Part shown: positions 11,737 through 33,413 of the stretch, piece by piece
Numbering within the stretch: the stretch's first letter is position 1
Layout of the letters: the number at the start of each line of letters is the position of its first letter
Source: Escherichia phage T4
Length of the DNA: 64,000 nt
Sequence record: OZ209023.1
Strand: one strand, 5' to 3'
Program-made: the position numbers and the translations under genes
The notes under the pieces: model-generated
What the model saw: only the letters and a program-made list of their open reading frames with translations
Told to the model about the DNA's origin: nothing
Databases searched by the model: none

Positions 11737-12769
11737 CAATGTGTTCAGTAGAGTTCGCTACTTCTCTACCCGTTTATATGAAACAATGTAATTTGGATAA
11801 TTGTCATCTAAACACAAATCTTTAATACGACTTGGGTGGAGTTTTAAATCTTTAGCAGCATCCACAAATGATTTATAGATATTGTCATTTATTTTAACAT
11901 ATTCTGGGACGGGATGAATTGTTATTTTTATATCTATAACATTTGGATGATTACTAACCTGTTCTTCAGAGCATTTAAGAAATTTTGCAGCTGATTTAAA
12001 ACTTCTAAATTTATTTCCGGATTTTAAAGCTATAGAAACAGTCTTTTTAGCCGTTCTACTACCAATATTATTTTTAACATGAGCTTCACTTCTACTATTA
12101 TTTTTATAATGCTCAATCAATTTCTCTCGTATCTTATCTTTATGTTTTAAAGATAAGATTTTACCTTTATGGGCATTACTAAGTTTTTGCTTATGTTCTT
12201 CTGAATCCGGATATTTGTTAAATTTATATCCACCTATAGATTTATTAAGAATAAATTCGTTATTAAAATATTTCCTAATAAGCATTTCTTCATGTTTAAG
12301 GGCCGATTCATAAGAATCAAAAACTTGAAGAATTATCCACTTAGCTTTATAATCTTTAAGCTTTTCTTTAACAAGCTTAGATGACGAATTGTATTCTTTC
12401 CAATTTGTATCTTTACCATATATAGTTTTGAATTTTTTAAAACCTATATAAAAAGACTTATCAGGAAATCTTACCATATAGGTAAATGCTACAGAATTGG
12501 CAATTTTTAAGCTTTTTCTTAATTTCCATTTCATCGTTTCACCTCGTATTCATATTTATACGAGGATAAACAGCTGCATGTCACCATGCAGTTCAGACTA
12601 TATCTTCAACTCTTAGAGTTGTCTGCCGTTTCGGGTCGCTTGACCCTACTCCCTTACATTCATCAGGGATAGTCGTTGGGCATTTACAGCTACTGCTGAT
12701 TTAGCAACGGATTGTCTCAGTGAGAGTTTCCCGTTTTAGGCAGATTTTACATGAGCTTGACTTACGTTA
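11737..12769 (-). mobile_element. Group I self-splicing intron in nrdD (inferred length 1033 nt) carrying I-TevII
   Basis: Exon 1 frame hits a stop at 12762-12764; boundaries inferred from a 605-aa NrdD, exon ending in U and intron ending in G. Confidence 0.65.
11758..12534 (-). CDS. GIY-YIG intron homing endonuclease I-TevII
   Basis: 258-aa ORF inside the nrdD intron; GIY-YIG-like N-terminus (YMVRF...FYIGF). Confidence 0.8.
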   Translation of the reverse strand: MKWKLRKSLKIANSVAFTYMVRFPDKSFYIGFKKFKTIYGKDTNWKEYNSSSKLVKEKLKDYKAKWIILQVFDSYESALKHEEMLIRKYFNNEFILNKSIGGYKFNKYPDSEEHKQKLSNAHKGKILSLKHKDKIREKLIEHYKNNSRSEAHVKNNIGSRTAKKTVSIALKSGNKFRSFKSAAKFLKCSEEQVSNHPNVIDIKITIHPVPEYVKINDNIYKSFVDAAKDLKLHPSRIKDLCLDDNYPNYIVSYKRVEK

Positions 12770-20836: not shown

Positions 20837-20866
20837 ATAGTACCACAGAGGAACGGTCTTGTAAAC
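20837..20866 (-). promoter_or_regulatory. T4 early-type promoter
   Basis: Minus-strand GTTTACaagaccgttcctctgTGGTACTATAC. Confidence 0.55.
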
Positions 20867-22276: not shown

Positions 22277-22306
22277 ATAGTACCATAAAGCTTTATGCTT
22301 GTAAAC
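22277..22306 (-). promoter_or_regulatory. T4 early-type promoter
   Basis: Minus-strand GTTTACaagcataaagctttaTGGTACTATAC. Confidence 0.55.
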
Positions 22307-22325: not shown

Positions 22326-22353
22326 GAAATAAAAAAGGGAGCCCGAAGGCTCC
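22326..22353 (-). terminator. Intrinsic terminator (gggagcc-UUCG-ggctccc then U6)
   Basis: Strong hairpin followed by UUUUUUAUUU on the minus strand. Confidence 0.7.
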
Positions 22354-22356
22354 CTA

Positions 22357-23367
22357 TCATTTATAATAACTTCGATGGTTTTCAAGATAAACCCTCTCAA
22401 GGAAGTCATCCCAGAAACTCATGTCTACTTTTTGCTGCATACCGTTCTTAGAAGCTTCAGTAGATGCTGCTTCTACTTGATCGACCACATCTTCCAAAAA
22501 CTCTTGAACGGTTTTAAATGGATGCTTACCCAACTTCACGTCGAGAATAAATGGAGCATCTTGGAGTGGATAAACCAAGTCACCAGTTTTGTAAATTTCC
22601 AATAGTTGAAGTCCACCACGACAAGCATGGCTCAGAGCTTTCCAGTCAATGCCTTCATTGGCTTCGGCCTTACGAGCACGTTCGCCGTATTCAGCATCTA
22701 ATTTGTTCAGTGACTGCTTAAGCTCAATAAGAGAAAGCGTTGTCTGATATTTACGACCCAACACTGTGTAAAACGTTTGTGGGCCTGTTTTCTCATGATT
22801 ATGGAACACCCATTCACAGAATTCGTTTTCTGGAAGACGATGCTTAATATCTTCAACTTTAGTACGACGCTGCTTAATGGAACCATCTTCTTGGTAATCA
22901 ACCCATTGCTCAGGGATTTGATTAACTACTTTCAATACATCGCGTAATGCAGCCAAACGAGAACCCTTGACGCCGTATTTAGAAGCTTGCTTGCGGACAT
23001 ATCCTAAATATGATTTCATGTTAGTCGTATAAAAACGAGAACGGTTGTCTTGAATAAACTTCCACACATCAGGCAAATCGGATTTAACCACTAGTTCAGG
23101 TGGAGTGTGGAGCATATCCAATGCTACAGTTTCACCATCTGCTGCTAATTTAAAGAAATACTTAAGACTATACAATTCGTGGTCAATATCATCTTTAGTG
23201 TTTTTAGATGATGTGTTGTTGGTATTTTTACTCATGTGCTCTTTGACGTTTCCAATAAGAATATCGCGAGCAGGAGGAACAAAGATTTCTTTAAAATCTA
23301 CATCAGATTCTGGAGTAGAAGTTCCATAAAGATGACTACCAAAATAAGACTTAACTACAGTTTTCAT
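22357..23367 (-). CDS. Predicted nucleotidyltransferase-fold protein (nrdC.11 position); start uncertain
   Basis: ~336 aa; N-terminal GSHLYGTSTPESDVDF resembles the Pol-beta-type NTase G[SG]...D.D motif; ATGs at 23367, 23382 and 23391 are possible starts. Confidence 0.55.
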   Translation of the reverse strand: MKTVVKSYFGSHLYGTSTPESDVDFKEIFVPPARDILIGNVKEHMSKNTNNTSSKNTKDDIDHELYSLKYFFKLAADGETVALDMLHTPPELVVKSDLPDVWKFIQDNRSRFYTTNMKSYLGYVRKQASKYGVKGSRLAALRDVLKVVNQIPEQWVDYQEDGSIKQRRTKVEDIKHRLPENEFCEWVFHNHEKTGPQTFYTVLGRKYQTTLSLIELKQSLNKLDAEYGERARKAEANEGIDWKALSHACRGGLQLLEIYKTGDLVYPLQDAPFILDVKLGKHPFKTVQEFLEDVVDQVEAASTEASKNGMQQKVDMSFWDDFLERVYLENHRSYYK

Positions 23368-24204: not shown

Positions 24205-24750
24205 TCACTTTGAAATCATAGTTGGAATAACAGAATCAAGATAAGTCTTTAGTGCAATAGCTTCGTCTTTGTTTAATGTAATGATATGTGATCGAAAATC
24301 ATCAATTTGACGAATAGATACTACATCTCCCTCTTCATAGCATTTTGAAACATTTAAAATAGTTTCATCATTCTGATTACAGGAGTTAGTAATAATAGCA
24401 TTACATTTTTTAAACCATTTTAAATTATGTTTTCTTTTAGTAGAATCATAAAAATATTTAATGTTAGTTATAAAATTATCCCAATTATTAATTGATAAGC
24501 ACATTGACTCGCTTTTAATATTAAATCCTGGGCATGAAGAATAAAAATGAATTTTATGCTCATCATTAATGCTTACAATTTTATCAGTGTAAGCATATTC
24601 AATTTGGGTTAAACGAACAATTTCGCTAGGCGTAAAATATAGCATGTCATCTTCTTGCGTCAAACGATACATGTTATTTACTTTTTCTATAGCCAATTCA
24701 CCAAAAAGTGGACTAACTTCTAATACTAGTCGTTTCGCCTCGCTCATCAT
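24205..24750 (-). CDS. Hypothetical protein
   Basis: 181-aa ORF, Cys-rich. Confidence 0.55.
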   Translation of the reverse strand: MMSEAKRLVLEVSPLFGELAIEKVNNMYRLTQEDDMLYFTPSEIVRLTQIEYAYTDKIVSINDEHKIHFYSSCPGFNIKSESMCLSINNWDNFITNIKYFYDSTKRKHNLKWFKKCNAIITNSCNQNDETILNVSKCYEEGDVVSIRQIDDFRSHIITLNKDEAIALKTYLDSVIPTMISK

Positions 24751-24882
24751 TACATACTCCTCTGAATCATATTAATAATGTTATTCACCAGATTATAAGT
24801 AAACATTGGGTAATTATATTGAATCATCACATATATAACAAACAAAACTTTCATTCTCTTCTCCTTGGCAGTTGACAAGATT

Positions 24883-24912
24883 ACTATACCATAATCTTGT
24901 CAACTTGTAAAC
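24883..24912 (-). promoter_or_regulatory. T4 early-type promoter with -10 embedded in a 13-bp-arm inverted repeat
   Basis: Minus-strand GTTTACaagttgacaagattaTGGTATAGTAAT; palindrome agttgacaagatt / aatcttgtcaact at 24870-24905. Confidence 0.55.
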
Positions 24913-24914
24913 CA

Positions 24915-25061
24915 TTAAATGACGTTTTCGATAAAATTTTGAAGCTTTGTATGAGCATCAACCATGATTTTCATTTCTTCCTTGGCAAAAGCTGTGCCTC
25001 TTTCCCGAGAAGAACATTCATAGTCAGAAACTGCATTAGCATATTCTTCAATTAGCTTCAT
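24915..25061 (-). CDS. Small hypothetical protein (48 aa)
   Basis: ATG at 25059-25061, stop at 24915-24917; MKLIEEYANAVSDYECSSRERGTAFAKEEMKIMVDAHTKLQNFIENVI; weak ribosome-binding site. Confidence 0.3.
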   Translation of the reverse strand: MKLIEEYANAVSDYECSSRERGTAFAKEEMKIMVDAHTKLQNFIENVI

Positions 25062-25077
25062 TAAAAACATCTGTTTT

Positions 25078-25272
25078 TCAGTTTTCATTATTCCACCTAA
25101 TCATTTCAAGATATTGAACTAACTTAGCTTTGGATTTATCCAAATCCCTTTTAGCTGCTTCTATACCGTCGTATGAATATCCTTCACAATGCTCAACTGC
25201 TAATTGATATGAATCTATTTCAATATCATGCGCTAATTTAATGATTTTTTCAAACTGTTCGCGTGTTAGCAT
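25078..25272 (-). CDS. Small acidic helical protein (paralog family with 25275-25457, 27269-27457, 27454-27645)
   Basis: 64 aa; N-terminal LTREQFEKIIKLAHDIE motif. Confidence 0.55.
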   Translation of the reverse strand: MLTREQFEKIIKLAHDIEIDSYQLAVEHCEGYSYDGIEAAKRDLDKSKAKLVQYLEMIRWNNEN

Positions 25273-25673: not shown

Positions 25674-25703
25674 ATAGTACCACAGCTCAAACGGAAAGTA
25701 AAC
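25674..25703 (-). promoter_or_regulatory. T4 early-type promoter
   Basis: Minus-strand GTTTACtttccgtttgagctgTGGTACTATAC. Confidence 0.55.
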
Positions 25704-25710
25704 CGGTAAA

Positions 25711-25736
25711 ATGAAAAAAGTCTCCCGAAGGAGACT
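25711..25736 (-). terminator. Intrinsic terminator (agtctcc-UUCG-ggagact then U6)
   Basis: Hairpin followed by UUUUUUCAUUUU on the minus strand. Confidence 0.7.
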
Positions 25737-29690: not shown

Positions 29691-29720
29691 ATTATACCAC
29701 AGTCAAGAGGAAAAGTAAAC
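29691..29720 (-). promoter_or_regulatory. T4 early-type promoter upstream of regB
   Basis: Minus-strand GTTTACttttcctcttgactgTGGTATAAT. Confidence 0.6.
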
Positions 29721-32299: not shown

Positions 32300-32328
32300 A
32301 TAGTATCATACCTACAGGAGATGTAAAC
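32300..32328 (-). promoter_or_regulatory. T4 early-type promoter upstream of denV
   Basis: Minus-strand GTTTACatctcctgtaggtaTGaTACTAT; flanked by the inverted repeat tcctgtag / ctacagga. Confidence 0.5.
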
Positions 32329-32669: not shown

Positions 32670-32714
32670 TCCTAGAATTGTGATAATATATTCACAATTC
32701 TAGGAGTTGTAAAC
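32670..32714 (-). promoter_or_regulatory. T4 early-type promoter of ipII overlapping a 14-bp-arm palindrome
   Basis: GTTTAC at 32709-32714; tcctagaattgtga-N8-tcacaattctagga at 32670-32705. Confidence 0.5.
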
Positions 32715-33373: not shown

Positions 33374-33413
33374 AATTGTGAATATACTATCACAATTCCA
33401 AGAGAAAGTAAAC
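33374..33413 (-). promoter_or_regulatory. T4 early-type promoter of ipIII overlapping the palindrome AATTGTGA-N8-TCACAATT
   Basis: GTTTAC at 33408-33413; aattgtga atatacta tcacaatt at 33374-33397. Confidence 0.5.

Follow-up and report, generated by a model that had tools for sequence, protein, structure and literature searches.

Why would an early promoter of Escherichia phage T4 carry its -10 element in the loop of a perfect inverted repeat? The question is raised by the promoter of mobD.2, a small gene found in a stretch of 64,000 nucleotides (nt) of T4 DNA (sequence record OZ209023.1), the whole of which is designated here the window; coordinates are positions in this window unless stated otherwise. 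The repeat sits in the 60-nt gap between the stop codon of the preceding gene, mobD.2a, and the ATG of mobD.2, both genes being encoded on the minus strand. A first-pass annotation of the window had proposed two roles for it, a strong hairpin in transcripts reading through from upstream and an operator on the DNA, and the evidence set out below leans towards the former.

The inverted repeat and its promoter

The arms had been described as 13 nt long, which was exact as far as it went, and they extend to perfect 14-nt arms at 24870-24883 (AGTTGACAAGATTA) and 24892-24905 (TAATCTTGTCAACT), which are 100% complementary and separated by an 8-nt gap. The chance expectation was obtained from 200 dinucleotide-preserving shuffles of the window, in which the frequency of perfect repeats (arms ≥14 nt, loops 3-12 nt) was 0.005 per window, and two such repeats were observed in the actual sequence, both over early-promoter -10 elements. 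A BLAST search of the window revealed no paralogue of the mobD.2 hairpin arms, the second match being the palindrome against itself, and an Rfam search of the hairpin returned chance-level matches only.

The presence of an early promoter with its -10 element in the loop finds support in U76612, the original T4 submission, in which both the -35 and the -10 signals are annotated at this place. On the minus strand, GTTTAC (24912-24907) is followed by an 18-nt spacer, by TG (24891-24890) and by TATAGT (24888-24883), giving GTTTAC-N18-TGgTATAGT, which agrees with the T4 early consensus. The -35 hexamer (24907..24912) was invariant in 17/17 aligned relatives. Reading in the sense direction, the 5′ arm of the hairpin (AGTTGACAAGATTA, 24892..24905) fills the promoter spacer, and the loop (UGGUAUAG, 24884..24891) comprises the TG of the extended -10 together with all of the -10 hexamer (24883..24888) but its last T, which opens the 3′ arm (TAATCTTGTCAACT, 24870..24883). 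In the alignment of 17 sequences, the loop TGnTATAG was nearly invariant. Counting the usual 7 nt from the end of the -10 element, transcription is predicted to start at a G at about 24876, within the 3′ arm, which would thus span about -7 to +7. A start at this place implies that transcripts of the nested promoter would lack the 5′ arm, and that the 5′ arm, being upstream of the start, would be found in read-through RNA only.

Predicted folds are consistent with the strong read-through hairpin that had been proposed, and the covariation described below places its pairing under selection. As RNA, the 36-nt element reached -19.1 kcal/mol (z = -7.3) with an AU-rich stem containing 4 G-C pairs of 14, and a hairpin of 15 bp was predicted for the read-through transcript, whereas the 22-nt leader of the promoter's own transcript was predicted to be unstructured (-5 kcal/mol, z = 0.36). 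In the predicted minimum-free-energy fold of a 101-nt read-through context, GCCA (24866..24869, minus strand) pairs with UGGU (24914-24911), extending the helix across a 5-nt internal loop until it abuts the Shine-Dalgarno (SD) sequence; this extension was not conserved in Mosigvirus. The occurrence of TTGACA in both arms, also pointed out previously, is true of T4, and relatives have TTGGCA or TTGGTA instead, from which the motif is judged to be incidental. As an alternative -35 element it was discarded, since it lies 9 nt from the -10 element on the minus strand, has no -10 element on the plus strand and is not conserved.

Pairing in relatives and at other early promoters

The 231-nt region submitted to comparison matched 632 phage records. 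In most Tequatrovirus genomes (RB9, T6 and others), the 5′ arm is AGTTGGCAAGGTTA and the 3′ arm is unchanged, resulting in two G·U pairs, and in Mosigvirus JS09 the arms are CTTGGTAGGACTA and TAGTCCTACCAA, which correspond to four compensatory double changes relative to T4. In Winklervirus (Serratia phage CHI14), arms of unrelated sequence (AGAGAGGGCAT and ATGCCCTCTC) were found in the same position relative to the -35 and -10 elements, and this hairpin precedes a clear mobD.2 homologue (51% identity). Promoter and hairpin are both missing from Karamvirus and Jiaodavirus, whose mobD.2 homologue directly follows the upstream gene. The sense-RNA hairpins of the four lineages had predicted energies of -19.1, -17.9, -20.6 and -19.7 kcal/mol, and the SD sequence was placed outside the stem at a distance kept in all of them (4-5 nt in T4 and 4-7 nt in the orthologues).

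Covariation was evaluated in an alignment of 17 sequences (A1), with 500 shuffles and with 3′ partners slid by 1-3 columns as controls. It was observed that 90.3% of the alignment cells were paired, versus 24-61% after sliding the partners, that 7/14 pairs changed on both sides, and that the observed covariation score was reached by none of the 500 shuffles. Moreover, about 110 unrelated metagenome promoters matching GTTTAC-N13-TATGNTATAGTA had no repeat other than the two pairs that the pattern itself imposes, and only the T4-like matches to this pattern carried the repeat. To judge from these alignments, the stem-loop is real, evolutionarily maintained and clearly under selection.

The suggestion that six other early promoters of the window lie in comparably strong hairpins was borne out by the folding of 21 candidates, of which 7 fell in the best 1% of background 56-nt window folds (the mobD.2 promoter and those at 20837, 29691, 32300, 32685, 37245 and 40824) and four more in the best 5-8%. 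In contigs of related phages, 14/33 unique early-promoter candidates were in the best 1%. The -35 and -10 elements, an upstream box and a box with the sequence CTATCAACT recur among T4 early promoters, whereas the arms of the seven nested ones have no sequence in common. Two architectures were recognized among the seven. At 29691, 20837 and 32300, the first and the last of which correspond, by the length of their open reading frames (ORFs), to the promoters of regB and denV, an anti-SD CTCC tract in the spacer forms the 5′ arm and the 3′ arm contains the SD sequence, leading to a predicted accessibility of the ribosome binding site that is 1.2- to 2.1-fold lower on read-through RNA. In the second architecture, comprising mobD.2, ipII at 32685, 37245 and 40824, a distance of 4-10 nt or more separates the end of the stem from the SD sequence.

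The mismatches tolerated in these stems bear on whether the pairing acts in RNA or in DNA. The commonest Tequatrovirus variant includes two G·T mismatches, with which the sense RNA hairpin holds -17.9 kcal/mol and the antisense one -7.0 kcal/mol, versus -16.8 kcal/mol for the antisense hairpin of T4. In the inner 12 pairs of the orthologue alignment, 15 G·U cells were found versus 4 A·C. A similar imbalance was observed class-wide with a detector that penalizes G·T and A·C equally. In 25 unique promoter-nested stems of T4 and related phages, internal transition mismatches amounted to 16 G·U versus 3 A·C, or, the counted stems being related, to roughly 12 and 2 independent events. Such a G·U bias would be expected of a hairpin formed by the sense-strand RNA, and speaks against an operator or a two-sided cruciform.

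Some observations concern the individual promoters. The early promoter at 29691-29720, whose element reaches about 29655, precedes a 153-aa gene (regB by size), and its spacer TTTTCCTCTTGACTG pairs with the SD-containing CAGTTAAGAGGAGAA at -21.6 kcal/mol, a fold that would mask the ribosome binding site of read-through RNA (predicted accessibility of 0.50 vs 0.24); this design recurs at 20837-20866 and at 32300-32328, the gene after the latter having 138 aa (denV by size). The window's other perfect 14/8/14 repeat, TCCTAGAATTGTGA-N8-TCACAATTCTAGGA, is located at 32670-32705 over the -10 element of an early promoter, and the gene downstream of it, of 100 aa, is ipII judging by its size and leader. 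With an ipIII-type promoter at 33384-33413 (193-aa gene) it has in common AATTGTGA-N8-TCACAATT, that is, TGTGA-N8-TCACA, which is similar to CRP half-sites but with a spacing of 8 nt and not of 6 nt; these common arms may simply reflect the paralogy of the internal-protein leaders. The CTATCAACT box is found at about +3 to +11, right after a TACTAT -10 element, in five early promoters of the minus strand (40452, 37577, 32295, 22272 and 20832), and it has a single occurrence elsewhere, on the plus strand. The -35 element is preceded by a conserved tcacaaa(g/a)nt. The CTATCAACT box is similar to the mobD.2 hairpin in its 3′ arm (TGTCAACT) and to the arms found in Mosigvirus (CCTATCAA), and thus the initial transcribed sequence may be constrained, with the spacer evolving to match it by complementarity. 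At 12131-12159, inside a coding region whose translation contains KGKILSLKHKDKIREKL, a further inverted repeat (perfect arms of 12 nt, ATCTTATCTTTA and TAAAGATAAGAT, with a 5-nt loop) occurs without promoter context.

Read-through transcripts and rival explanations

Two sources of transcripts containing the complete hairpin lie upstream on the minus strand. The first is the mobD.5 early promoter (25674..25703), and between it and 24912 the terminator scan found no terminator-like site on this strand. The second is PmobD.3, which starts at about 25304 (T4 58381) and is an experimentally mapped MotA-dependent middle promoter (Hinton review, Table 1, PMC2988021). Since no terminator intervenes after the former and the latter has been mapped, upstream read-through transcripts must exist.

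A polymerase coming from mobD.5 or PmobD.3 would transcribe both arms, and the resulting RNA would form in vivo a hairpin of about -19 kcal/mol located 4-5 nt before the SD sequence (AAGGAG, 24866-24861, within 24854..24866). In turn, a polymerase starting at the nested promoter would begin in the 3′ arm and produce the unstructured 22-nt leader. In this way, mobD.2-mobD.1-mobD would be represented by two mRNA isoforms, and the cassette would be insulated from upstream transcription. That the element works as an RNA hairpin specific to read-through transcripts is considered, on balance, probable, while any single effect that the hairpin may have downstream is put forward tentatively and, taken alone, is doubtful. 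Standby sites are well established as determinants of ribosome loading, and in the read-through isoform the hairpin could fill the ribosome standby region beside the SD sequence, leading to less ribosome loading; efficient expression of mobD.2 would in this case depend on the gene's own early promoter. Another possible effect concerns mRNA decay. The 11-nt GGAGAAGAGAA (24864-24854) fits the target rule of RegB/S1, in which GGA is followed by an A-rich stretch (PMC1702504), and after a putative RegB-type cleavage at the adjacent GGAG within it, the hairpin, a few nt from the new 3′ end, might protect the upstream message. The idea that RegB needs the hairpin was discarded, since the published RegB/S1 site requires 3′ context and not 5′ (PMC1702504).

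Several points weigh against the read-through interpretation, besides the relatedness of the stems counted above. The SD sequence and the AUG of mobD.2 are inside the stem in no orthologue, and the predicted accessibility of the mobD.2 ribosome binding site decreases from 0.55 to only 0.41 in the read-through context, so the translational effect may be small. The G·U bias would fit equally well a hairpin in single-stranded non-template DNA. In the searchable literature, no mapping of RNA ends, structure probing or expression measurements were found for T4, and the authors who described promoter-early stem-loops (PeSLs), a class to which we return below, favour the role of terminator or attenuator (PMC2839356).

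According to that proposal, the hairpin would stop or pause the upstream polymerase, and the nested promoter would be neither supplemented nor occluded. In RB49/phi1, one PeSL stem-loop inserted ahead of lacZ, downstream of a promoter, cut expression about as much as rrnB T1 (Arbiol et al., PMC2839356), and in the Mosigvirus phage SA35RD (OL960577) the orthologous hairpin (260-301 of the locus compared) was annotated as a rho-independent terminator by prediction software; in addition, 0/7 of the strongly nested promoters have a canonical terminator upstream. However, the tested RB49 stem-loops were polyG/polyC, and the same authors call the T-even ones weaker AT-rich analogues. The mobD.2 stem is AU-rich, and no U tract follows it, the sequence after the stem being GCCAAGGAG in T4, AAACAAAT in Mosigvirus and AATCAGGAG in CHI14, with no sense-strand U tract in SA35RD either. 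Where T4 does terminate, a GC-rich hairpin with a UUCG loop precedes a run of T, as exemplified by AGTCTCCTTCGGGAGACT plus T6 (25719..25736, minus strand), which the terminator scan located 800 bp farther upstream, immediately ahead of the mobD.5 promoter; the same scan did not report the mobD.2 hairpin, and a canonical terminator was rejected. A terminator or attenuator role in the broader sense is regarded as rather unlikely. A second UUCG-loop terminator with a T run is found at about 22330-22360, directly upstream of the early promoter at 22277, and both cases represent a 'terminator then promoter' cassette boundary that contrasts with the nested form. The distribution of canonical terminators and nested hairpins tends towards complementarity, but with only 2 terminators found this trend is uninformative.

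The remaining explanations place the symmetry in DNA or deny it a function. The element could form a cruciform or a single-strand DNA hairpin, serving either as a supercoiling-dependent off-switch of the promoter or as a hot spot of recombination or template switching that shuffles cassettes. In favour of such a role, one confined to RNA does not require that the repeat be centred on the -10 element, and a DNA-level role accords with the Mosigvirus homology breakpoint exactly at the -35 element, with the occurrence of the same element upstream of unrelated genes and with the PeSL-to-PeSL recombination and mini-circles of RB49/phi1, one crossover being mapped within the loop (PMC2839356). Moreover, the shut-off of T4 early promoters, described in PMC3014915 as unexplained and as lacking an identified factor, leaves room for a DNA switch as well as for a regulatory protein. 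Nevertheless, a cruciform requires that both strands fold, and in the commonest variant the complementary strand reaches only -7.0 kcal/mol; the class-wide mismatches are strand-asymmetric; and homologous recombination between cassettes requires common sequence and not a hairpin, of which the window holds no paralogue. A DNA-level role is thus taken to be improbable. The palindromic operator, recognized by a dimeric repressor or activator of the early promoter, agrees with the perfect dyad symmetry centred on the -10 element in T4, and, as in the case of I-TevI, a T4 endonuclease can repress itself via an operator over its own promoter. Against it, the arms vary from promoter to promoter and differ between genera by compensatory changes that keep their complementarity, so that a single sequence-specific protein could not recognize all the variants; no half-site was conserved among promoters or orthologues; the G·T mismatches carried by most Tequatrovirus genomes spoil the DNA palindrome; TTGACA is not conserved; and a site of 36 bp whose half-sites are spaced by 22 bp would be atypical. 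By the covariation, the lack of common half-sites and the G·T variants, the operator that had been suggested was rejected, and we hold it to be very improbable. Least credible of all is a chance or neutral by-product, such as a functionless fold-back duplication. Short repeats are common in AT-rich sequence and the arms have no paralogue in the window, but the chance expectation was 0.005 per window, compensatory changes maintain the pairing across three genera, the hairpins keep a stability between -18 and -21 kcal/mol, and the repeat is absent from the roughly 110 unrelated promoters with the same core pattern. The covariation in particular effectively refutes this reading.

If the element is indeed an RNA hairpin specific to read-through transcripts, densely packed and co-oriented T4 cassettes would keep their own expression rules despite heavy read-through, and the spacer of the promoter would double as the 5′ strand of an RNA hairpin.

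Gene setting and known systems

The 2-kb stretch around the repeat has 100% identity to phage T4 OZ209057 and 99.7% to AF158101/NC_000866, and a window position corresponds approximately to the AF158101 coordinate minus 33078. The genes are arranged, all on the minus strand, in the order mobD.5, mobD.4, mobD.3, mobD.2a, mobD.2, mobD.1 and mobD, the last one encoding an HNH homing endonuclease. The flanking mobD.x ORFs are small (34-64 aa), and relatives show indels and gene swaps in this region. The coding sequence of mobD.2 (24750..24854, 34 aa), which comes first in the cassette under the nested promoter, begins with the ATG at 24854, and that of mobD.2a (24915..25088) ends with the TAA at 24917-24915, 2 nt upstream of the -35 element; thus, the whole 60-nt intergenic space consists of promoter, hairpin and ribosome binding site. 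MobD.2 is a hydrophobic peptide with homologues in 840 phage records from Tequatrovirus, Mosigvirus, Winklervirus, Karamvirus and Jiaodavirus, an unusually wide range for an ORF annotated without function. It was also noticed that the window has one extra C at 24986 relative to AF158101 (between T4 58063 and 58064), by which mobD.2a becomes 57 aa (24915-25088) and not the annotated 39 aa, in agreement with the 174-nt mobD.2a annotated in RB9 and T6. A sequencing error probably truncates mobD.2a in the reference annotation. Two more 1-bp indels relative to AF158101 were found at 25713 and 25949.

The mobD.2 element belongs to the already described class of the PeSLs, and its promoter was annotated in the 1990s. 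PeSLs were described in RB49/phi1 by the Krisch laboratory (Arbiol et al. 2010, PMC2839356), and their stem-loops are located mostly between the -35 and -10 elements or overlapping the -10, are concentrated in hyperplastic regions, and have as analogues, on T4 early promoters, the weaker AT-rich stem-loops of the T-even internal-protein loci. PeSLs occur in a genome as mutually similar copies of about 100 bp, between which recombination can take place. The class was later extended to the PST/T4 pair, with the promoter consensus TTTACW-N17-TAYWAT (Comeau et al. 2014, PMC4122927). Both the PeSLs and the mobD.2 element consist of a strong early promoter, an AT-rich upstream region, a stem-loop, and an SD sequence plus ATG between small ORFs. 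The mobD.2 promoter, a strong sigma-70-dependent one of the phage's early type, fits the PST/T4 consensus, its perfect 14-bp stem folds at -19.1 kcal/mol with the -10 element in the loop, and the element lies between a stop at 24915-24917 and the ATG at 24854, among the small ORFs of a hyperplastic region.

The element also resembles the PeSLs in marking the borders of swapped gene modules. DNA homology with Mosigvirus begins exactly at the first base of the -35 element (24912), the genes upstream being unrelated, and a nearly identical promoter-hairpin precedes other genes in phiE142 and in contigs from metagenomes, in accordance with the module exchange known for PeSLs. From the comparison of these genomes, promoter, hairpin and gene behave as a portable DNA module. 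Two differences were observed. The RB49/phi1 stems are polyG/polyC and terminate, whereas the mobD.2 stem is AU-rich and has no U tract; and the PST figure legend (PMC4122927) puts the stems just upstream of the promoter, whereas the mobD.2 promoter is inside the stem-loop. What is new here is the covariation, the strand asymmetry that supports a role at the RNA level, and the finding that the element is neither a canonical terminator nor an operator. Compensatory mutations in the arms offer a simple testable handle on the role of the U-less AT-rich stem-loops of T-even PeSLs, and the same handle bears on the post-transcriptional marking of read-through RNA in early-gene shut-off.

Comparison with regulatory elements of similar shape leads to a caution for annotation, namely that such repeats should not be named operators or rho-independent terminators by shape alone, the SA35RD hairpin being an example of such mislabelling. 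As in intrinsic terminators, a stable intergenic hairpin stands at the end of the upstream cistron, but it differs from them by the lack of a U tract, by the AU-rich stem and by a loop of 6-8 nt. As in palindromic operators (lac O1 and the I-TevI autorepression site), dyad symmetry is centred on core promoter elements, a feature also reported for the synthetic cruciform-regulated promoter that is attributed to Horwitz and Loeb, 1988. Unlike in operators, the mobD.2 symmetry is kept by covariation without a conserved half-site, and natural variants break the symmetry of the DNA while keeping the pairing of the RNA.

The closest parallels come from T4 itself, where the gating of translation by a hairpin with a promoter inside it was proven at e, soc, 49 and I-TevI (PMC3014915). 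In these genes, the promoter is contained in the DNA for the 5′ strand or the loop of the hairpin, long upstream transcripts fold, and transcripts of the nested promoter do not, which is the same logic in the same phage. At mobD.2, the predicted start at about 24876 is inside the hairpin, with the -10 element ending at 24883; sequestration of the SD sequence and/or AUG, which is part of the gate in those genes, was not observed at mobD.2 and was found at 29691, 20837 and 32300. We regard it as unlikely, though worth stating, that promoter-nested sense-strand hairpins constitute a genome-wide isoform switch in T-even phages. Were this true, about a third of T4 early promoters would lie in hairpins existing on read-through RNA only, early genes would be used efficiently only from transcripts of their own early promoters, and those carried on middle or late read-through RNA would be marked for silencing or processing. 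Such a switch would form a post-transcriptional part of early shut-off and a mirror image of the late-gene gate of e, soc and 49. The difference between the two lies in timing: in the proven gates, late promoters are nested in hairpins that silence early read-through transcripts, whereas the nested promoter of mobD.2 is an early one, and the isoform to be marked or silenced would be the early or middle read-through RNA.

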